DNA of 64,000 bases from Sedimentisphaerales bacterium (GTDB lineage Bacteria > Planctomycetota > Phycisphaerae > Sedimentisphaerales > SM23-30), in contig CAXXFK010000029.1 of assembly GCA_963663965.2 (NCBI GenBank), positions 224,001-288,000 on the forward strand, in the 5' to 3' direction. Below the pieces are notes generated by a model. That model had not been told where the DNA came from, ran no database searches, and saw only the letters and a program-made list of their open reading frames with translations. This document shows positions 749-12,945 of the stretch, in pieces. Within the stretch, counting starts at the first letter, position 1. Each line of letters opens with the position of its first letter. The translations under genes were made by a program, and so were the position numbers.

Positions 749-2518
749 TTGGTATCCGTGAAGATAATTGAACAACAAGATATTCGATCCCGTTTCAAAA
801 AGTCAGCCGTAGTAAGAAGTGTTACGGCGCTGGCGACGCTGGGTGTATTGGTATTGGAGTTTGGATTCGAGCAGCTCTATCTGCCCCAGTGGCTGTTTAA
901 TTTTCTGGAGATTCTGGGAGGGCTGGTTTATCTAGGCGCTAATTTGTATAACTGGATGGTTGAAGAACCCCACGAGTTCAATTGGCGAAAACCGCTACTG
1001 GATATCAGTCTGTTAGCGATTATGTTTTTCAGTTTTCTGTTTGTTCCGGCTATCCAATCGAATTTACCCGTTCACTATATCGACTGGCGGATTTATAAGA
1101 TTTACCTTTTTGCCGTCATGCTGTTTTATATGGCGCGCCTGAGTGTGACCGCCGCGGCAAGTGGACGGGCGCCGACACGGGCACTGTTGGCGAGTTTTTT
1201 AGTAATTATCGTTACCGGATCATTGTTGTTGATGTTACCAGCGGCGTCGACGGGGGAGCCTCTGAGTTTCACTGACGCCTTTTTTACTTCCACCAGCGCC
1301 ACCTGTGTGACGGGATTAGTTGTCAAAGATACCGGATTGGATTTTACGCGCTTTGGCCAAATTGTGATCTTGATATTGATTCAGGTTGGTGGATTGGGGA
1401 TCATGATTTTCGGCGCGGTTTTCGCGTTACTGATGGGGAGTCGGCTAACATTACGGGAATCGGTTGCGATCCGGGATATCATGAATGAACAGGCCCATGG
1501 CCAGATCGGGCGAATTACCGTATTCATTTGTATTTCAACGCTTCTCCTGGAAGCCATAGGCGCTTCAGGATTATACGGAATCTGGCAAACCAGTGATGCC
1601 ACGGGCGGCCAGCTTTTCCAAAGTATATTTCATTCGATCAGTGCTTTCTGTAACGCAGGATTTGCCCTGCAGGGGGATAGTCTGTCGAAATACCGGTCTC
1701 ACTGGCAGATCTATCTATTTGTGTGTCCTTTGATTATACTCGGAGGGTTGGGATTTCCCGTATTAAGCAATTTGTGGCAGATTTTACGAGATAGAATTCG
1801 TCGCATGAGGAAAAAACGCAAGGTTGCTCCGGTTCGCTTAAGCTTACATAGTCGTCTGGTGTTGATATCCAGTTTGTTTTTGCTGGTTTTTGGATGGGAA
1901 GTATTCGTGATATTGGAGAAGGTGCGGCCGGTTCCTCCCGATGGCATTGTACCGAACATTACGTATCTTGACAGCCTGTTCAACTCGATTACCGCGCGAA
2001 CGGCCGGATTCAATACCGTAAATATTGCCGATCTGAGTGCGGGGTCCAAGCTGGTATTGATGTTTTTGATGAGTATCGGAGGTTCCCCCAGTTCGACTGC
2101 CGGTGGAATTAAAACGATCGCCTTTGCCGTGATGGTTCTGTCCGTTTTTTCGACGATCTCAGGGCGGCAAAAAGTCCATGTATTTCGACGGGCTATCCCG
2201 GTGATGGTAATCCGGCGCTCAGCAACCATTTTTATGTTATACGGTATGTTAATTTGGGGGATTACCCTGTTATTAACCGTTACGCGCCAGAGTTATAGTT
2301 TCAGTCTGATCGATTTAATATTCGAAACGTGCTCAGCGCTCGGGACGGTTGGTTTGTCAACCGGATTGACTCCGGATCTGCCAATTGCCGGAAAATGGAT
2401 TATCATCATGGCAATGGTGGTCGGACGATTAGGACCGGTTAGTTTATTGGCAGCGTTGACCTTGCATGGAGAACGTGAGGACTATGACTATCCTATGGAA
2501 CCGCTGGTTGTCGGATAA
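749..2518 (+). CDS. ktrB: Trk/Ktr potassium uptake membrane subunit (TrkH/KtrB) with extra N-terminal transmembrane region
   Basis: Four pore-loop motifs (SATCVTGL, SAFCNAGF, TARTAGF, SALGTVGL), GGSPSSTAGGIK, GRLGP; start codon uncertain. Confidence 0.9.
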   Translation: MVSVKIIEQQDIRSRFKKSAVVRSVTALATLGVLVLEFGFEQLYLPQWLFNFLEILGGLVYLGANLYNWMVEEPHEFNWRKPLLDISLLAIMFFSFLFVPAIQSNLPVHYIDWRIYKIYLFAVMLFYMARLSVTAAASGRAPTRALLASFLVIIVTGSLLLMLPAASTGEPLSFTDAFFTSTSATCVTGLVVKDTGLDFTRFGQIVILILIQVGGLGIMIFGAVFALLMGSRLTLRESVAIRDIMNEQAHGQIGRITVFICISTLLLEAIGASGLYGIWQTSDATGGQLFQSIFHSISAFCNAGFALQGDSLSKYRSHWQIYLFVCPLIILGGLGFPVLSNLWQILRDRIRRMRKKRKVAPVRLSLHSRLVLISSLFLLVFGWEVFVILEKVRPVPPDGIVPNITYLDSLFNSITARTAGFNTVNIADLSAGSKLVLMFLMSIGGSPSSTAGGIKTIAFAVMVLSVFSTISGRQKVHVFRRAIPVMVIRRSATIFMLYGMLIWGITLLLTVTRQSYSFSLIDLIFETCSALGTVGLSTGLTPDLPIAGKWIIIMAMVVGRLGPVSLLAALTLHGEREDYDYPMEPLVVG

Positions 2519-2608
2519 TATAGGATCAACTGGAGAAGTTAATACCGTAGCCCAAAGATATTAACAATCTGACAAATAGATTGATATAACTTGACAGGAG
2601 TTCAACTC

Positions 2609-3283
2609 ATGCAGCGATTTGCAGTAATTGGATTAGGACGTTTTGGCGCTCAACTGGCCCGGTCGTTGACCGCTTCAGGCGCGGAAGTTATTGCCATTGA
2701 TAAAGACCGGCGCATTATTGATGAGATCAGTGACAGCGTGACGTATGCTGTCCGTCTTGACAGTACCAATGAAGAAGCGCTCCGGGCGCAGGGAGTCGAT
2801 AAGGTTAATGTTGCAATCGTGGGTATCGGGCAGGATTTCGAATCAAGTATTTTAACGACGGTTATTTTAAAAGGAATGAAAGTGACCCGGATCTGCTGCC
2901 GGGCAGAAAAACAGATACATGGTCGAATATTGCGACGAGTGGGCGCCGATGAAATTATTTTACCTGAGGAAGAAAGCGCACAGCGCTGGTCATTTAAGCT
3001 CATGGCGCCGAGGATAGGTGAAAAGCTGGAATTTGCACCGGGTTTCAGTTTTGCTAGATATAATGCGCCGGCCAGCTTTCATAATAAAACAATACTGGAA
3101 TTGAACCTGCGTAAGAAGTATAATGTCAACTTGATTGGGTTGCACAGGGCGGCCCAGCCGGATGAGGCTGAAATATCCGGTCAGATTATCAATGTGCCCT
3201 TGCCTGAGACGATTATCCATAAAGGGGATGTTTTGTGGCTGGTGGGTTCTGATGACAACCTGGCCTCGATGCCGGATGAATAA
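2609..3283 (+). CDS. ktrA: Trk/Ktr potassium uptake regulatory subunit (RCK_N + RCK_C)
   Basis: FAVIGLGRFG Rossmann motif; AGGAG RBS before ATG 2609; adjacent to ktrB. Confidence 0.9.
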   Translation: MQRFAVIGLGRFGAQLARSLTASGAEVIAIDKDRRIIDEISDSVTYAVRLDSTNEEALRAQGVDKVNVAIVGIGQDFESSILTTVILKGMKVTRICCRAEKQIHGRILRRVGADEIILPEEESAQRWSFKLMAPRIGEKLEFAPGFSFARYNAPASFHNKTILELNLRKKYNVNLIGLHRAAQPDEAEISGQIINVPLPETIIHKGDVLWLVGSDDNLASMPDE

Positions 3284-4144: not shown

Positions 4145-7100
4145 TTAATTGGTATTTAACTTTTTCGCTCCTTTATTAAGAAAGTTCCTTAAACAAGCCA
4201 GTAACGTTCTGGGTGTTTCAAAATAACGTTGCCCCAGACGCAAATGGATTGTTTGGGTATCTGGTATTCGTACTGAGCCTGGAGCATCTTGGAAGAGATT
4301 GCCCACGTGCGCATCTTTTTTAATGTTAAAGATCAAATCGGGGATTTTCTGGACGATACTGCGAATGTGGAGAAAAGAAGCGAGAACGCGAATCTCCGCC
4401 AGATCGAGCAGGTCTTGAACCGCCTGAGGAGGGCGCCCAAATTGATCGTTCAAGTCACTTTCAAGCAGGTCAAGGTCTGTCCGGTTACGACAGGTAGCCA
4501 GGCGTCGATAAGTCTCCATGCGTTGTCGGTCTGAGGCGATATAGGACCGAGGGATATGATTGTCGATATTCAGTTCAAGATGAGTAATGATGGGGATAGG
4601 GACGGATTCCCCTTTAAGGCGGTGTACGGCGTTTTGCAGCAAACGGCAATACAATTCGTAGCCAACGGCATCGATATGGCCGGATTGTTCGATGCCCAGG
4701 ATATTGCCGGCCCCACGGATTTCCAGGTCTCTCAAGGCGATGCGAAAACCGCTGCCCAACTGGGAATATTCTTCAATGGCTTTCAGGCGTTTGACCGCAT
4801 TGGGATTAATCTTACGGGTACGCGGTAAGAGCATGTAGGCATAGGCGCGATTCTTATAGCGGCCGACTCTGCCGCGCAACTGATGTAATTCAGCCAAACC
4901 GAAACGGTCGGCATCATTGATGATGATGGTGTTGGCGGAGGGGATATCCAGGCCGGATTCGATGATGGTCGTACTGACTAGTATATCTGCTTTATGTTTC
5001 ACAAAATCGACCATTCGTTTTTCGAGATCCCGTTTGCTCATCTGGCCGTGAGCAACAATGATCCTGGCGTCGGGGATCAGGCCGGCAATGACATCGGCCA
5101 TGGACTGGATAGACTGAACACGGTTATGCAGAAAAAAAACCTGGCCATCGCGAGCCAGTTCCCGGTTGATAGCCTGGGCAATCAGGATGTCATCGTAGGG
5201 TACGACCTGCGTTACAATACTGCGCCGGTCTAATGGCGGCGTGGTCAGGGATGAGATGTCACGGATTCCCATTAAAGCCATATGCATGGAACGGGGCAGG
5301 GGTGTTGCGGTTAGTGTCAGAATATCTACAGTGGCGCGAAGTTGTTTCAGACGTTCTTTGTGTTCGACTCCGAAACGTTGTTCTTCGTCAATAATAACCA
5401 GGCCAAGATCTTTAAACCGGATATCTTTACTTAAAATACGATGAGTTCCGATCAGGATATCTATCTGCCCAAGGGAGAGTTTTCGGACAATTTCAGAGGC
5501 CTGGGCAGCCGTGCGGAATCGGCTGAGCATTTCGACATGGAAGGGGAAATCTGCCATACGATCATGAAACGTCTGGTAATGCTGAGCCGCCAGAACCGTC
5601 GTCGGGACCAATACCGCTACTTGTTTACCCTGTTCGGCGGCTTTGAAGGCGGCGCGCATTGCCAGTTCGGTTTTGCCGTAACCTACATCTCCGCAAAGCA
5701 GGCGGTCCATGGGACGGCTGTTTTGCATGTCTCGTTTGATTTCTGAGATAACGGCCAATTGATCTGGGGTTTCCTGATAAGGGAAGGCATCTTCGAATTC
5801 TTTGACCCAGGAGGTATCGGGCGGATAGCAGATACCAGGTGTTGCCTGACGTTTGGCCTGGATATCAATCAGGCGAGCCGCCATATCTTCAACCGCTTCA
5901 TTGGTTTTGTTTTTTTGTTTTTCCCAGGACCGGCTACCCAGTTTAGACAGTTTGGTCTGTCCTGGCGTTGATCCAACGTATTTATGAATGAGGTCGATTT
6001 TACTGGCCGGCACATGCATTAACGCGCCATCGGCATATTCCAGAGTGAGGTATTCTTCATTCCGGCCGTCTTTGTTCATGATCTTGAGGCCGCGGAACTG
6101 GCCAATTCCGTGATTGATATGGACAATCAGGTCACCAGGTTCCAGGTCAGTAAAGGATTCAATCGCCTGCACATGACGGATACCTCGAATTCGCCGGCTG
6201 ATCTGCTGCTGGCCGAAGAGTTCATGATGAGTGGTTACTGTAAGATTCAGTTGGGGCAGGGCAAAGCCGCGATGGAGCAAGCCGACGGGCAGAAACAGGT
6301 TATCCGGGACAGCCTGTTCGTTTTCACGCGCGAATGACTGGATGATTTCGATACAGCGTTGACGATGAGCGGGTTGTTCGCAGAAGAAGTAAACTTTATG
6401 ATCTTGCTTACGGCTTAACATAACCAGATCATCAAGCGCTTCAACGGATCGGGCGGCATAATCCTGAACGGAACCAGCATGTAAATTGATCGATCGGATA
6501 CCAGGATCACATTGAAACCGATTGATATAAAGCGTATCAAAGCGATTCAGTTTTTTGAGCACCTCTTCGACGGAATAGGTCATATCCGGATTGGTAAGAC
6601 GGGCTCTAATTAAACGGCCTGTTTCCTGGATTTCGATCGCTTCTTCCAGGATGACCAGCGTTTTGTCTGGCAAGTAATGGGTGAAATCTGTTTGTTCATC
6701 CGGCATGGAACCACGCTGACAGGGAGCCAGTGAAACCGTATCCGTTGAACGGATTGAGCGGCGAGAATCGAGGTCGAAATATCGTAATGATTCAATTTCA
6801 TCGCCGAAGAATTCGATACGTACCGGGTGGCTGAATGCGGGTGGAAAGATATCGACAATACCGCCACGGCAGGCAAATTCACCAACCCGATCAATTTCTT
6901 CCGTACGGTCAAAACCGTGACGATCCAACCAGTCCAGGAGAGAATCCAGTGTCAAGGCGTCATTATTACCGATACGGAGGATTAAAGAATGGCATTCCAT
7001 ATAGGCAGGAGCGGGGACCGGTTGCATCAGGGCGCTGATCGAAGCAACCAGTATCGGCATGCTATTGCCGCAATAGTTTAAGAGCGACTGGCAAATCCGC

Positions 7101-7453
7101 AATCTTTCGCAGGCAATATCTGAGGTTGGATCGATCCGCCCGGAAGTCGATTCGCCGGCCGGTAATAGTTCAACTGAATGTCCGGAACAGGTTTCCAGGT
7201 CATCTTGAGCGTTATCCGCCTCCGGGATATGGGCTGTTACGTATAGGACCGGGCGTAATAGAGTTTCGCTTATGATGGATGCCAATAGCCGCCCAAGGGA
7301 GCCCCAGTTCCCGTAAAATTCATAAAGGAAGGGACGGCCGGGGGTAGAGATGGAACCGGACAGATCCCTGGCAAGGAGCGATATTGCCTGGCCCAGTTCT
7401 GTGCCGTGAGGTTCAAGCAGTAAGTTTTTGATCTGATTAAGAGAGTCGGACAT
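4145..7453 (-). CDS. mfd: Transcription-repair coupling factor
   Basis: UvrB-homology region (GEFACRGGIVDIF), CarD-like domain (VHINHGIG), CGDVGYGKTE, DEEQRFGV, QLRGRVGR, RDLEIRGAGN. Confidence 0.97.
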   Translation of the reverse strand: MSDSLNQIKNLLLEPHGTELGQAISLLARDLSGSISTPGRPFLYEFYGNWGSLGRLLASIISETLLRPVLYVTAHIPEADNAQDDLETCSGHSVELLPAGESTSGRIDPTSDIACERLRICQSLLNYCGNSMPILVASISALMQPVPAPAYMECHSLILRIGNNDALTLDSLLDWLDRHGFDRTEEIDRVGEFACRGGIVDIFPPAFSHPVRIEFFGDEIESLRYFDLDSRRSIRSTDTVSLAPCQRGSMPDEQTDFTHYLPDKTLVILEEAIEIQETGRLIRARLTNPDMTYSVEEVLKKLNRFDTLYINRFQCDPGIRSINLHAGSVQDYAARSVEALDDLVMLSRKQDHKVYFFCEQPAHRQRCIEIIQSFARENEQAVPDNLFLPVGLLHRGFALPQLNLTVTTHHELFGQQQISRRIRGIRHVQAIESFTDLEPGDLIVHINHGIGQFRGLKIMNKDGRNEEYLTLEYADGALMHVPASKIDLIHKYVGSTPGQTKLSKLGSRSWEKQKNKTNEAVEDMAARLIDIQAKRQATPGICYPPDTSWVKEFEDAFPYQETPDQLAVISEIKRDMQNSRPMDRLLCGDVGYGKTELAMRAAFKAAEQGKQVAVLVPTTVLAAQHYQTFHDRMADFPFHVEMLSRFRTAAQASEIVRKLSLGQIDILIGTHRILSKDIRFKDLGLVIIDEEQRFGVEHKERLKQLRATVDILTLTATPLPRSMHMALMGIRDISSLTTPPLDRRSIVTQVVPYDDILIAQAINRELARDGQVFFLHNRVQSIQSMADVIAGLIPDARIIVAHGQMSKRDLEKRMVDFVKHKADILVSTTIIESGLDIPSANTIIINDADRFGLAELHQLRGRVGRYKNRAYAYMLLPRTRKINPNAVKRLKAIEEYSQLGSGFRIALRDLEIRGAGNILGIEQSGHIDAVGYELYCRLLQNAVHRLKGESVPIPIITHLELNIDNHIPRSYIASDRQRMETYRRLATCRNRTDLDLLESDLNDQFGRPPQAVQDLLDLAEIRVLASFLHIRSIVQKIPDLIFNIKKDAHVGNLFQDAPGSVRIPDTQTIHLRLGQRYFETPRTLLACLRNFLNKGAKKLNTN

Positions 7454-7539
7454 GCCATTATCTTAATCAGATATTTATTAATATCAAGAGGATACTGGAG
7501 GTAGTGATTAGCGGCTATATTCTGAGAAGGTAGGGTGGC

Positions 7540-9828
7540 TCAGGTCAGATTTTTATACCAGACGTTCATCGATTCAATCTGACCGGATATATTGGTGTTA
7601 TTAATCAAACGCCCCCCAAAATGGTAGCCGGCCCGGGCAAAGGTGATATTCATACCTGGTGACGCAGCACGTGCGATGGTATAGGCCGTTTTGAAATCAC
7701 GCCGGAGAATGGCATCTTCCATGTATTCCAGTAACTGGATAGCCAGATTATTGCCGCGCATTTCCGGAAGGGTGGCAAAATCAGTCATTTCCGCGTTTTG
7801 AGCCTCAAGATCCATTTCGGCTGAAGACAAGGCCACCATCCGCCCCTGAATTTCGACACAGAAATAGTCAATATGATCATTCATCGTTTCAAGTAGATAA
7901 TCCGGTTCAGAGATGGGGAAGGGATAACTGGGAAATACTTCTTGATAAATATCAGCCATCTGGTTCACATCTCCGGGTCGGCAGGGACGGATAGTCATGT
8001 CATCCATTGGTGTCATTGTTGGCGATGTTGCCGACTTCTCAATGGTGATTCTTAACACTTCGTCAAGGTTTTTCCTGTTATCCAAATGAGCGCGGTCGGG
8101 ATCCAGATATTTAGCCAGGAACAAGGCGTCCTGATCACCATTATAAAAACCGGGCACTTGAGCTTCTTTAAAATAACCGAATTCTTGAAAGATCTCTTGT
8201 TGGTCAGCGGGAGCTTTGGCAAATATCTTACTGTATTCCTGTTGAAGGGCCAGTTCTTCCAGTTGAGGTATCAGGTTTTCGGGTTCTGCGTCTCCGATTT
8301 TCATCAGATAGATACGTTCATTCAGAGGTCCATGCTGAATCAAAGCGCCGTCAAGTGTTTCAATCGTATCGGTAGTCTGATGAATATTGACAGAAGCGAT
8401 TGTTTTATTGTCGGGAAAGAGAAGCGATAGAGGGAAAAAGAGAATACTGGAACAAAGAATGCCATATAACGTGAAGTCGAATCCCCAGTCATCTAAAAAT
8501 TGAGGCAGAGTCAGGATTTTTAACATCAGCAATAATGTCAGGATGCCACCGCCCATCATAGCGGCCAAGGCTCCGGTTGAACTGGAACGTTTCCAGAAAT
8601 AAGCTCCCAGAGTGGGTATGAAAAGGCCGGAAACCATAAAGGCGTAGGCGTAGAGAATGGCATCCAGCACCGCATTGAACTGAGCTGCCAGCAATACCGC
8701 CAAGGCACCAATGATAAAGGTTGCCAGCATGGACAGACGCATCAAATTCCTGGGCGAGATCGTACCCGGCCAGTAACGTTCAATCAGGTCATTGACGAAA
8801 TTGCCGGAAGCGGCCATCAGACAACTATCAGCTGTTGACATGATCGCAGAAAAATAAGACGCAATGACAATACCCGTTACGCCGACAGGGAGAAGGTCAC
8901 GGATCAACATAGGCATGGCCATTTCCGGATCGGCCTGCGGGAAAACTACCCGGGCACACATGCCCAGAAAAACACCAGTGAATGCCATAATTGGATATTC
9001 GAAAAACCCGGCGATATACCAGGCTTTCCTAGCCTGCTGAATGTTTTTGCAGGCATACATGCGCTGGTACAACGTCATCGCGATTAACCAAATGGGGATT
9101 ATCGTGATCATCCAATTGATGAATGTCACAATTGAGATATTTGTTATTGTGAAATATTGACCAGGTAATCCTGAACGAAGGGCCTGCCAGCCGCCAATTT
9201 TATAGAGCGTAAACGGGATTGTGATCAAGATAAGCCCGGCTAATAATATAATCCATTGAATCGTATCGGTATAAATAACGGCTTTGAGGCCACCAAATAC
9301 TGTGTACAGGATTGTGATTGCGGCAATTGTCAGGAGTGCGAATGTCACAGGATTCATTCCAAAAGGATTTGATTGCAGAATAGTGGCTGAGGCTAATTTA
9401 GCGCCGGCAAGCATCTGGGCGCCAGTAAAACCCAGATAGCCTATTCCAGAAATTAATGCTGCCACTAATGCCACCTTGTCATTATATCGGTAACGTAAAA
9501 AATCCGGATAGGTCATGAATTGGTGGTTGCCATCAAGGCTTTTGATGCGAGGGATAATAAAAACGGCACTTAACCAGGCCCCAATCAGGCCGGTAAACAG
9601 CAGCCAACTGCCAGAGAGTCCCATCAGGAATCCAACACCTCCCAGACCGATGGAAAAGCCACCTCCAACATCCGTTGCCACGATAGACAGGCCAACATGA
9701 GTGGCATCGATAGATCGGCTTCCTACATAGTAATCTTCCATTGTTTTGTTGCGGCGGAAATGATAAAAGCCGACTGCCAACACTCCCAGCATATAGATAC
9801 CAAAAATCAAATAGTCGATAATGTGCAT
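7540..9828 (-). CDS. Fusion: sodium:solute symporter (SSS, about aa 1-470) + beta-lysine N-acetyltransferase AblB-like GNAT (about aa 487-762)
   Basis: SSS motifs ([34 protein letters not shown]), then AblB-like sequence ([64 protein letters not shown]) in one uninterrupted frame. Confidence 0.88.
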
Positions 9829-9844
9829 GATAGATAACCTGTTT

Positions 9845-11158
9845 TTATTCTTCAGACTGCCTGCGACGGTAACGTTCGTTTGAGGCGGGAATCAATGAGA
9901 TTGTCTCGTCCGAGTCTGAGAGTAATTTTTCGATTCCCAGCGATTTCCATTCATCGGCGTCGTTTAAAGAAAGTTGCAGGTCGCATTCATCGCAACGCCG
10001 GTTACAGAAGACCGGTTCATAGGAATCCGGCTCTTTGTAGGCGGTAATGACGCCCTCGTAATTTCTTAATACCACTTTGTTGGTAGACCAAGAGATCAGA
10101 TAGTTGGGCATAACGGGAATTTTACCACCCCCGCCAGGGGCATCAATGACATAGGTGGGTACGCAAAATCCACTGGTATGGCCGATGAGGCTTTCGAGGA
10201 TCTCGATTCCTTTGCCGATCGGTGTCCGGAAATGGGACAAACCTTCTGAAAGGTCACATTGATAAAGATAATAAGGGCGGACACGGTTAATGGCCAGTTT
10301 ATGAACCAGCGCTTTCATGATGCGCGGACAGTCGTTAACCCCTGCTAATAAGACCGATTGATTGCCGAGAGGGATTCCGGCATCCGCGAGTTTGGCGAGT
10401 GATTGCCTGGCCGAGAGGCTTAATTCCCGGGGATGATTAAAATGGGTATTGATCCAAAGCGGGTGATATTTTTTTAGGATAGAAACAAGGTTATCTGTGA
10501 TACGATAGGGCAGGACGACAGGAGTCCGGGTGCCAATACGAATGATTTCAACATGGTCAATTGCCCGCAACTCACTCAGAATCCAGTCCAGTCTTTCATC
10601 AGACAGCAGAAAAGGATCGCCGCCACTTAACAGGACGTCGCGAATTCTGGAATTTTGACGGATATACTCAATCCCCTGAGATATCTGAGGCCGGCTGGGA
10701 ATAGAGTCTTCATTGCCGACCCGTCGTTTCCGGGTACAATGCCGACAGTACATCGAACACATATTACTGACTAACAATAAAACACGGTCAGGATAACGAT
10801 GAGTGACACCAGGCACAGGACTATCATGATCTTCGTGTAAAGGATCAGCCATATCAGAACAGGAAGTATGAAGTTCCAATGGAGAAGGAAAAGACTGCAA
10901 AAAAATCGGATCGTTTTTGAGATTGTCAACATCGATCAGTGACAGATAATAGGGAGTGATTGACATGGGAAATTTTGCAGATGTTTTGTGGAACGCCTCT
11001 TTTGTATCCATATCCAATTCAACATCAAGAAGATTTTGGAACATGTCAATATTACGTATACAGTGTTGCATTTGCCAATGCCAGTCTCGCCAATTGGAAC
11101 CGGTGACTGTTCCATCAATGGCATCGATTATACGTTTCTGTTTTGTATTCAATTTCAT
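9845..11158 (-). CDS. ablA: Lysine 2,3-aminomutase (radical SAM/PLP), AblA type
   Basis: [16 protein letters not shown] (CxxxCxxC), [17 protein letters not shown] lysine, RNYEG, C-terminal CxxxCxxC; directly upstream of an ablB domain. Confidence 0.95.
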
Positions 11159-11315
11159 AATGAAAATCCTTTATTTAAATTCAAATCTTAGGGGATTAAT
11201 ACCTTGTAAGAAGTGATGTATTAGCGTGGGCAGCCCAGGAAGATTGGCGATTAAAATAAGATTGATATACCGATCGTAACAAACTTGAAAAGCAACAAAA
11301 AAACATAAGAGCTGA

Positions 11316-11343
11316 ATTATAGCAGAAATAAAAGAAAATGCAA
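11316..11343 (-). promoter_or_regulatory. Putative sigma70 promoter of the ablA operon
   Basis: Minus strand TTGCAT-N16-TATAAT with extended -10 TGCTATAAT, about 160 nt upstream of the ablA ATG. Confidence 0.55.
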
Positions 11344-11811
11344 ATTGACCACCAGACATTATGTATCAAAATATCAGAGTATTGGATATTAATGTAAAAA
11401 AAATTAGACATGATTTGATTTTGAATGGATTTAACGGGTATTAGGGGGTGTTAAAAAAAACAAGATATTCAAAGGAAAAATCATAAAAATGGGTAAAAGT
11501 TTGAAATTTGAGGTATTATTCATTAAACTTCCGATAAGTTAAAGTGCCTGATTGTTGTGAATCGAATCAAAAAATAAATTAACGCTAAAATAATAGACCC
11601 ATATTCAGTGTTAATGTTGATGTTAAATCCAATGGATATGAAAATTCCTGATTGCTCGCAAGATAAGTTTTTACCCAAGTATTACATATATCACAACCCA
11701 GCAGGCATTTTCAATTGTAATCAGTATATATCCATTCGTTGCTGACAAGTATGGATGACTGAAAAAATCTGCCAGTTTAAAAAACTATTGAAATAAGGTT
11801 AAATAACCCTC

Positions 11812-12945
11812 ATGTATCATCGAATCAATACTCTTGTATTTGTTTTCATATTATTTCTTTTCTGGGATCATAGTCTCATTGCTTCTGATGATATGGTGAC
11901 TAAGTCTGAAGGCAAGGAGACGGTTCTGGATCCGAATTTTATTTATAGCGGAGTCGTTGTTCGCGTTAACGATGATGCCGTGACTTCTGCAGAGGTGCTG
12001 AAGTTATTAAGAAAGCAATTGAGTGAAATCGCAGGAGATATTAAGCGCGATAAAGAGGGGCATTTGAATCTGGAGGATTTTGTTCCCAAAGCGTTGGGAT
12101 TGGTGCAAAATGAAACCATGGCACATATTTATAATTTGCTAATTTATCAATTTGCCCGAAAAGATCTGGATAAGGTTGAAGGGATCGATAAGGCGATCGA
12201 AAAAATGCGCGAGGAGAAGCGTAAAGAAATTATTCTGCAATACGGAGGCAGTGAAACCAAGGCGCGCAAGGAATTGGCGTTGCGTGGAAGCACCATTGAG
12301 AAAGAACTGGAAAGTACGGAAAAGGAAATGGTGATCAGCGGTTATCGCGATAAACATTTCACCCCGACACTTAAGGTGACTCGCAGCCAGTTGCTGCAAT
12401 ATTACCGGTTACATTTAAAAGATAAGTTTACACAGGAAGCCACGATTGAATTTGAATTAATTGATATCTGGAAAAGCAAGAATAAGGAAGCAACGAAGGT
12501 GGCAGAGCGTGCGATGGCTGAATTGGAGGAGGGAACTGAGTTTGCCGAGGTGGCCAAAAAATACTCCAATGGTTATTACCGCGATAATGGCGGCCGATGG
12601 CGGCCCATGCATCCGGATTCGGTGCGAGATATTTATAAGCCCGTCGTTGAAGCATTAAAACAAACCGAACAGGGAGCGTTAACCGGCATTATCGAAACGG
12701 ATACTTCAGTATTTATTGGGCGGTTGATCGCTTACACCCCGGCGTCAGTCGCCCCGTTTTCTGAAGTGCAGAATGATATCTTTCTGGCCATCCGTGATCA
12801 GCGGTGGGATACCTACAGCGAAAATCTGGGAAATCGATTGTTGGCCGAAGCTGTTTTAGGGGATATTGATGGATTTATTAAAGCGACAGTATTGCTTGCA
12901 TTTGATGAATATGATCGTCATCTGCTGGCCGCAAAGGAGAATTAA
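11812..12945 (+). CDS. SurA/PpiC-type peptidyl-prolyl isomerase chaperone, exported
   Basis: Signal peptide, VVVRVNDDAVT SurA-N start, FAEVAKKYS..NGG parvulin motif, APFSEVQ. Confidence 0.8.
   Translation: MYHRINTLVFVFILFLFWDHSLIASDDMVTKSEGKETVLDPNFIYSGVVVRVNDDAVTSAEVLKLLRKQLSEIAGDIKRDKEGHLNLEDFVPKALGLVQNETMAHIYNLLIYQFARKDLDKVEGIDKAIEKMREEKRKEIILQYGGSETKARKELALRGSTIEKELESTEKEMVISGYRDKHFTPTLKVTRSQLLQYYRLHLKDKFTQEATIEFELIDIWKSKNKEATKVAERAMAELEEGTEFAEVAKKYSNGYYRDNGGRWRPMHPDSVRDIYKPVVEALKQTEQGALTGIIETDTSVFIGRLIAYTPASVAPFSEVQNDIFLAIRDQRWDTYSENLGNRLLAEAVLGDIDGFIKATVLLAFDEYDRHLLAAKEN

Follow-up and report, generated by a model that had tools for sequence, protein, structure and literature searches.

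The locus described here is an AblA/AblB osmolyte locus, predicted from its sequence to yield N-epsilon-acetyl-beta-lysine, where the acetyltransferase AblB is joined to a Na+:solute symporter of the SSS family. As far as sequence comparison goes, the fusion is confirmed as a real single gene, with both halves apparently intact, and it is a minority form of a conserved ablA-sss-ablB operon. The overall explanation that fits best, to which we would give even chances, is that of an N-acetyl-beta-lysine operon whose symporter recaptures the product, and in which fusion has been a recurrent and passive event.

The fused gene and its surroundings

The features of the locus, all within a window of 64,000 nucleotides (the whole stretch that was analysed), are collected in Table 1. 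The sequence-only reading had described ablA followed after 16 bp by one 762-codon open frame, in which a complete SSS transporter continues through a short hydrophilic linker into a full AblB-like domain near nt 8370, with neither a stop nor a Met at the AblB start, and this description has stood in all its parts: (i) the frame has no internal stop, and the gap between ablA and the ATG of the fused gene is 16 nt (9829–9844); (ii) the SSF and TIGR03827 families are both matched, the linker is as quoted there, and D487, the conserved AblB start residue, lies at nt 8370; (iii) and finally, a codon scan found no in-frame ATG, GTG or TTG between codons 441 and 495, and the 60 nt that precede D487 are likewise free of any SD-like word. 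In other words, AblB is not here a separate soluble protein, being joined to the SSS and lacking a start codon of its own.

Table 1. Features of the abl locus in the window
Feature	Position	Strand	Basis
ablA (kamA), lysine 2,3-aminomutase, radical SAM, 437 aa	9845..11158	(-)	TIGR03820; Pfam Radical_SAM + LAM_C
Fused sss-ablB, 762 aa, single open frame	7540..9828	(-)	ORF; contig X1; fused homologues
Na+:solute symporter domain (SSS/SLC5), residues 1-472, with 13 membrane helices predicted	8413..9828	(-)	Pfam SSF, AlphaFold2, Foldseek, PutP alignment
Linker, residues 473-486 (14 aa), hydrophilic, predicted disordered, no start codon	8371..8412	(-)	pLDDT, codon scan
AblB domain (beta-lysine N-epsilon-acetyltransferase), residues 487-762, cytoplasmic by prediction	7540..8370	(-)	TIGR03827; conserved columns
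Candidate sigma70-type promoter, extended -10, ~160 nt upstream of ablA	11316..11344	(-)	Pattern match only

AblA scores 766 bits with its equivalog model, against a cut-off of 525, with both Pfam domains present, and the glutamate and arginine mutase models score under their cut-offs. The AblB domain is matched by TIGR03827 (GNAT_ablB) over residues 495-761, with 336 bits against a cut-off of 205, the match covering model positions 2-266; B. subtilis and M. acetivorans likewise exceed the cut-off of this model. All of the 53 columns conserved in unfused AblB are kept (the mean of kept columns being 0.98 in fused and 0.96 in unfused proteins), as are 148/148 family-conserved columns of the SSS domain, and on these counts the decay of either half into a pseudogene was ruled out. 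No solved structure of a close AblB relative was found.

The source genome has one copy of the fusion gene, and the closest named homologues belong to Sedimentisphaerales and other Planctomycetota. Signals around the operon are few. The candidate promoter has a 10/12 match and is joint-best among 20 sites, where shuffled sequences would lead one to expect 11.1; no convincing terminator was found (four candidates against 4.3 expected). An Rfam search of 7000–12200 gave no riboswitch, only one chance match (E 0.95), and the DUF1646 / Na+ riboswitch was not found upstream of ablA in this interval, Na+ riboswitches being described as able to control ablA (PMC9337991). The mfd gene (4145–7453) starts, on the same strand, 86 bp after the fused gene; at 749–3283 there is a Trk/Ktr-like K+ uptake pair, judged by the look of the translations. 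A dispersed intergenic repeat of ~110 bp lies at 11618–11737, with short inverted ends in its majority sequence; it has 74 blastn matches in the genome, 67 of them 80 bp or longer, spread over 31 of the 42 contigs, it has no Rfam match, and it may be a MITE-like element or else an RNA present in many copies.

Is the fusion genuine?

It could be argued that the window shows two overlapping genes joined by an assembly error, an explanation that we consider extremely improbable. When 960 single-base edits around the junction were examined, nine were such that two separate genes could plausibly result (only edits with a start at codons 468-487 being counted; a looser filter that admits starts deep in the last helices raises the figure to 516/960), so that the letters by themselves are compatible with an error. 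Read mapping over the junction had been suggested as a check: a public contig (run X1) spans 7000–11666 with 0 differences, although its depth is low (~5) and it is not independent evidence, because it possibly comes from the source sample; runs X2 and X3 have no coverage of the junction. However, the AblB start codon and the SD-like word are both absent, as seen above, the window's protein has fused nearest relatives in the AblB tree as well as in the joined one, and no ablA-sss fusions are seen, whereas errors would take no account of membrane topology.

Principally, the fusion is not an assembly slip because there are many fused homologues, all-fused clades and fused nearest relatives. The joint SSF and AblB architecture, proposed as something to be sought in other genomes, is found in at least 31 other full-length proteins, and one partial, among the 120 of 164 matches listed by the protein search, and in alignment A1 all 31 members, window included, match both families. 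One fused homologue carries the NCBI label 'putative beta-lysine N-acetyltransferase'. Some of the singleton fusions among the homologues may themselves be assembly errors.

Fused and split forms across genomes

In the examined loci, 76 sss-ablB pairs are split and 7 are fused. The best 80 of 516 GTDB loci comprise 37 with ablA-sss-ablB as separate genes, 5 full fusions, 1 damaged-looking fusion, 11 with ablB in another order, 6 with ablA only and 20 with neither, ablB being within the locus in 54 of these 80, across 15 named phyla; the best 80 of 435 metagenome loci include 1 fusion. The rates of linkage and fusion in both sets are inflated, since the loci were ordered by their similarity to the fused query. 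A less biased sample is that of 60 related genomes, of which 12 have an SSS orthologue (63-77% identity); in 2 of these the two genes are fused, in 7 they are neighbours yet separate, and in 3 they are unlinked; ablB is present in 12/12 of these carriers vs 17/60 of the related genomes overall. Among 401 genomes sampled from the class, 30 pass the AblB cut-off, the window's frame being the only one long enough for a fusion and the SSS lying directly upstream in 7 of the 30 loci, and among 401 from the phylum 0/18 AblB frames are long enough. There are also 22 genomes with the SSS and no neighbouring ablB, in 16 of which no ablB was found, these being incomplete MAGs.

The sequence-only reading would have been weakened if close relatives all encoded two genes: most relatives do, but the nearest ones are fused. 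Split sss and ablB are also found in cultured strains, namely Chlorobium phaeovibrioides BrKhr17, Marinobacter nauticus DP3N21-5 and Fulvitalea axinellae DSM 100852; in the last of these, a marR-kamA-sss-ablB operon is carried on plasmid pFA9 (NZ_AP025323.1:39377-44207, locus L212).

The symporter half and its topology

The Pfam SSF family is matched over residues 33-427 (E 1e-48, 167 bits vs a cut-off of 22.8), and TIGR00813 falls slightly short on the domain, with 173.5 bits vs 184. In the AlphaFold2 model of the fused protein (mean pLDDT 85, pTM 0.60) there are 13 membrane helices by our count, a separate GNAT domain, and a disordered linker at 475-484 with pLDDT <50; the top Foldseek matches are all SLC5 proteins (SGLT, SiaT, CHT1), and the ESM Atlas gave generic SSS clusters only, at 0.79. 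When the two halves, SSS and AblB, were modelled as a complex from 68-row alignments, the score was 0.00, which speaks neither for nor against it, and a second fold, of a lone unfused SSS folded without an alignment, reached pLDDT 42 and was left out.

The predicted inside loops carry 13 Lys/Arg and the outside loops 5, with helix limits set by hand, so that the N-terminus of the SSS is predicted to lie outside and its C-terminus inside. Topology prediction thus places the GNAT in the cytoplasm, as had been anticipated; a C-terminus inside would allow AblB to be attached there, and the cytoplasmic AblA could not be joined to the N-terminus.

The residues A51, V54, A328, S331 and T332 are present and are invariant in alignment A3; they align to A53, M56, A337, S340 and T341 of PutP, which we take to be its Na2-site positions. 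The Na2 pattern described in section 4.1 of the SSS review is one of two aliphatic residues in core helix 1 and, in core helix 8, one together with two Ser/Thr (PMC7918813). From its family membership, the SSS would be expected to use Na+. Only SSF and GNAT were found in the fused protein, with no STAC, PAS, kinase or other signalling domain.

Origin of the fusion

Of the 76 split pairs, 57 overlap, mostly by 8, 4 or 1 nt, and a Met just before the AblB start is kept in 14/39 fused proteins, whose linkers are of 6-33 aa and unconserved. On the SSS tree (241 rows, 32 of them fused, after merging 282 rows at ≥97% identity) there are at least 20 changes of fused state, and on the joined tree of 114 rows 15-16, the mean of shuffled states being 28; these counts do not separate gains from losses. 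A homologue that looked fused (L053) is short of ~140 residues in its AblB and incomplete in its SSS, and was left out of the fusion counts and trees. Four groups made up solely of fused proteins, with 5, 5, 3 and 2 rows, reach SH-aLRT values of 95-100, and on the IQ-TREE tree 2 changes are required within a fused group of 7 rows. The window protein groups with the fused L002, P0003 and P0005 on the 32-row tree (support 97), and its fused trio has a support of 95 on the 114-row FastTree, which drops to 86, with unfused rows nearby, once the tree includes relatives that have the SSS alone.

That the fusion arose only once was also considered, and one clade was rejected by the AU test (p-AU 4.5e-5, on 32 rows chosen by hand, of which 17 are fused and 15 are split). 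Since split forms are in the majority and a leftover Met persists in 14 of the 39 linkers, the fusion would seem to have been gained repeatedly. Positive selection for tethering is another possible meaning of the 15-20 changes.

The ablA-sss junctions offer a comparison: 0/85 are fused, though 32/85 overlap, and the SSS is absent from 72 long AblA relatives (0/72). The absence of AblA-SSS fusions is what would be expected if membrane topology bars them, as predicted. A Fisher test of 0/85 vs 7/83 fused gives p 0.006, a value that is only indicative, because relatives do not count as independent cases and the ranking works in favour of fused matches. There are also at least 15 AblA-AblB fusion proteins among the matches listed (P0035-P0049), 14 of 706-743 aa and one partial. 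As such AblA-AblB fusions exist, AblB would appear to fuse to whichever gene precedes it.

The process could have been as follows. The overlap of sss and ablB would let small frameshifts fuse them, the product would be tolerated, as AblB lands on the cytoplasmic side with a flexible tether, and some lineages, that of the window included, would have kept the fused form. Fusion would fix a 1:1 ratio and a membrane location, and is probably unneeded for either activity.

Cargo of the symporter and alternative functions

If the proteins act as their families do, AblA would convert L-lysine into beta-lysine, and AblB would acetylate this with acetyl-CoA in the cytoplasm; the gene context suggests that the SSS would then recapture the acetylated product after leakage or release through mechanosensitive channels. 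Three functions had been proposed at the outset, namely the import of beta-lysine or lysine for acetylation, the recapture of leaked osmolyte, and the coupling of Na+ sensing to enzyme activity, and recapture is the best of the three, with a cargo that is read from gene context. That this cargo is N-epsilon-acetyl-beta-lysine stands, in our judgement, at a little less than an even chance, and the reason for preferring it is that all 12 SSS-carrying relatives also carry ablB; another osmolyte as cargo is rather unlikely, and a sensing or export role of the SSS is distinctly so. At 27% identity to E. coli PutP, the sequence itself does not disclose the cargo.

An MscS-family channel gene stands between ablA and sss in 6 loci (L001:6073-6978, L004, L083, L084, L087 and L089), which brings a gene for release and a gene for uptake together in one operon, and 22 loci contain a MarR gene, the loci of the two genome searches partly overlapping. 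Among the GTDB loci without ablB, another small GNAT lies no more than two genes from the SSS in 11/26, and 8 of those 11 also carry an ornithine-racemase-like gene; the carrier would thus track amine acetyltransferases, since other small GNATs adjoin it where ablB is absent. Loci in which a small GNAT and the ornithine-racemase-like PLP enzyme stand beside the SSS (L045, L047, L054, L063, L067, L073, L077 and L080, around 5500-11800) are mostly from Bacteroidota, sometimes with an M20 amidohydrolase, and may represent a pathway, so far undescribed, whose product is a (D-)diamino-acid osmolyte in N-acetylated form. Since lysine and ornithine both occur as osmolytes in N-acetylated form (PMC9049628), these loci suggest that the SSS subfamily is a carrier for N-acetylated diamino acids. 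A divergent KamA of ~490 aa, with 33-38% identity to the window's AblA, is found beside sss-ablB in many Bacteroidota and some other loci (L037, L038, L044, L052, L066, L071, L078, L049 and L070); the three scanned (L037, L049 and L070) are under the AblA cut-off, and their substrate may differ. In many of the proteins P0129-P0193, KamA is joined to an ATP-grasp domain (Ddl-like or PurD-like), some with intein/homing endonuclease domains.

The main rival to product recapture is precursor uptake, which is possible, with clearly lower probability: the SSS would import leaked beta-lysine or L-lysine, and the tethered AblB would trap beta-lysine on entry, in a loose form of channelling. Such an arrangement would agree with the co-occurrence of the transporter and the pathway, with the SSS being always fused to AblB, the user of imported beta-lysine, and kept so in several clades, and with two SSS genomes where a KamA scores over the AblA cut-off and no ablB was found; the Gly in place of PutP W59 is likewise compatible with a longer cargo. 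However, if so, it has to be reconciled with the dominance of split genes, with a linker that is unconserved and disordered, and with the making of beta-lysine inside the cell by AblA; topology already explains AblB rather than AblA as the partner, and in one methanogen added lysine is reported to have little affected osmolyte pools (PMC1224877). The SSS could instead be a general importer of osmoprotectants, OpuE-like and taking up proline or a similar compound, that is merely expressed together with ablAB from a salt-induced promoter; the fusion would then be incidental. PutP is indeed the best named HMM, with 152 bits, the SSS follows proBA at one ablB-less locus (L009), and 16 of the 22 SSS-only genomes are without detected ablB; nevertheless, those 152 bits are far under the PutP cut-off of 515 (TIGR02121), PutP W59 and Q251 are G and A here, and ablB accompanies the SSS in every related carrier, the unlinked ones too, all of which makes this reading unlikely.

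Yet more doubtful, to the point of being very unlikely, is that the SSS domain acts as a Na+/solute sensor which switches the attached AblB in the manner of CbrA. SSS domains fused to cytoplasmic output domains, which they modulate, do exist (PMC7918813), and AblB is predicted on the correct side of the membrane, but there is no STAC or PAS domain, the linker is of 6-33 aa, unconserved and of low pLDDT, and the fusion is polyphyletic and missing from most operons. The Na+ coupling proposed in the sequence-only reading has therefore not been upheld, nor has its membrane-tethered transport-synthesis unit, as most relatives have two overlapping genes, fusion is recurrent and the linker is neither conserved nor ordered; in other words, an obligatory transport-synthesis machine or a Na+ sensor is unsupported, because the fusion is a polyphyletic minority with a variable linker and with a partner that topology explains. 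A more daring version, in our opinion improbable, would have the fusion selected 15-20 times as a coupled unit, either for Na+-driven beta-lysine import with acetylation at the inner gate or for tuning of AblB by the cargo, and the SSS would be the pathway's first dedicated carrier; if the cargo-tuning variant were true, synthesis would stop when osmolyte can be scavenged.

In terms of product recapture with passive fusion, the main gain is the transporter subfamily, that is, one specific and highly conserved SSS group as a candidate osmolyte carrier, which can be assayed because split versions occur in cultured strains. If this carrier takes up the osmolyte, the compound would be shared in saline sediments and digesters. 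In addition, repeated and topology-filtered fusion provides natural fused/split pairs for asking whether tethering to the carrier changes flux.

Comparison with known systems

The chemistry of AblA/AblB is established (PMC12776343, PMC9049628, PMC3543383), and the enzymes of the window resemble the known ones in that both pass NCBIfam equivalog cut-offs; the difference is that AblB is here the C-terminal domain of a 13-helix transporter. In what was chiefly open literature, no report was found that describes the fusion, places an SSS gene in abl operons or names a transporter of N-acetyl-beta-lysine, in agreement with the initial statement that no characterised example was known. A figure legend of PMC11337218 shows putative kamA-ablB fusion proteins, and the text seen with it mentions no pathway transporter; the sections of the SSS review that cover sensor-kinase fusions include no acetyltransferase fusion (PMC7918813). 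The SSS-AblB fusion is thus apparently undescribed, yet a variant of known parts.

With PutP and OpuE the window's SSS shares the fold, the Na2-site residues and the predicted 13-helix topology, and it differs from PutP in its low identity (27%), in not keeping W59 and Q251, and in its place inside an abl operon. OpuE, itself an SSS, recaptures proline in B. subtilis (PMC9437891); by analogy, the recapture of a home-made osmolyte is the role proposed for the SSS of the window. CbrA and CrbS/MxtR, as described in the review, also combine a full SSS with a C-terminal cytoplasmic catalytic domain (PMC7918813), from which the window's protein differs in having a biosynthetic GNAT, no STAC, PAS or kinase, a short variable linker, and a sporadic occurrence of the fusion. 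Lastly, TeaABC, which recovers leaked ectoine, and EhuABCD are alike in the proposed retrieval or scavenging of a compatible solute (PMC1224877), although those are TRAP or ABC systems for ectoine which, as described there, are not fused to a synthesis enzyme.
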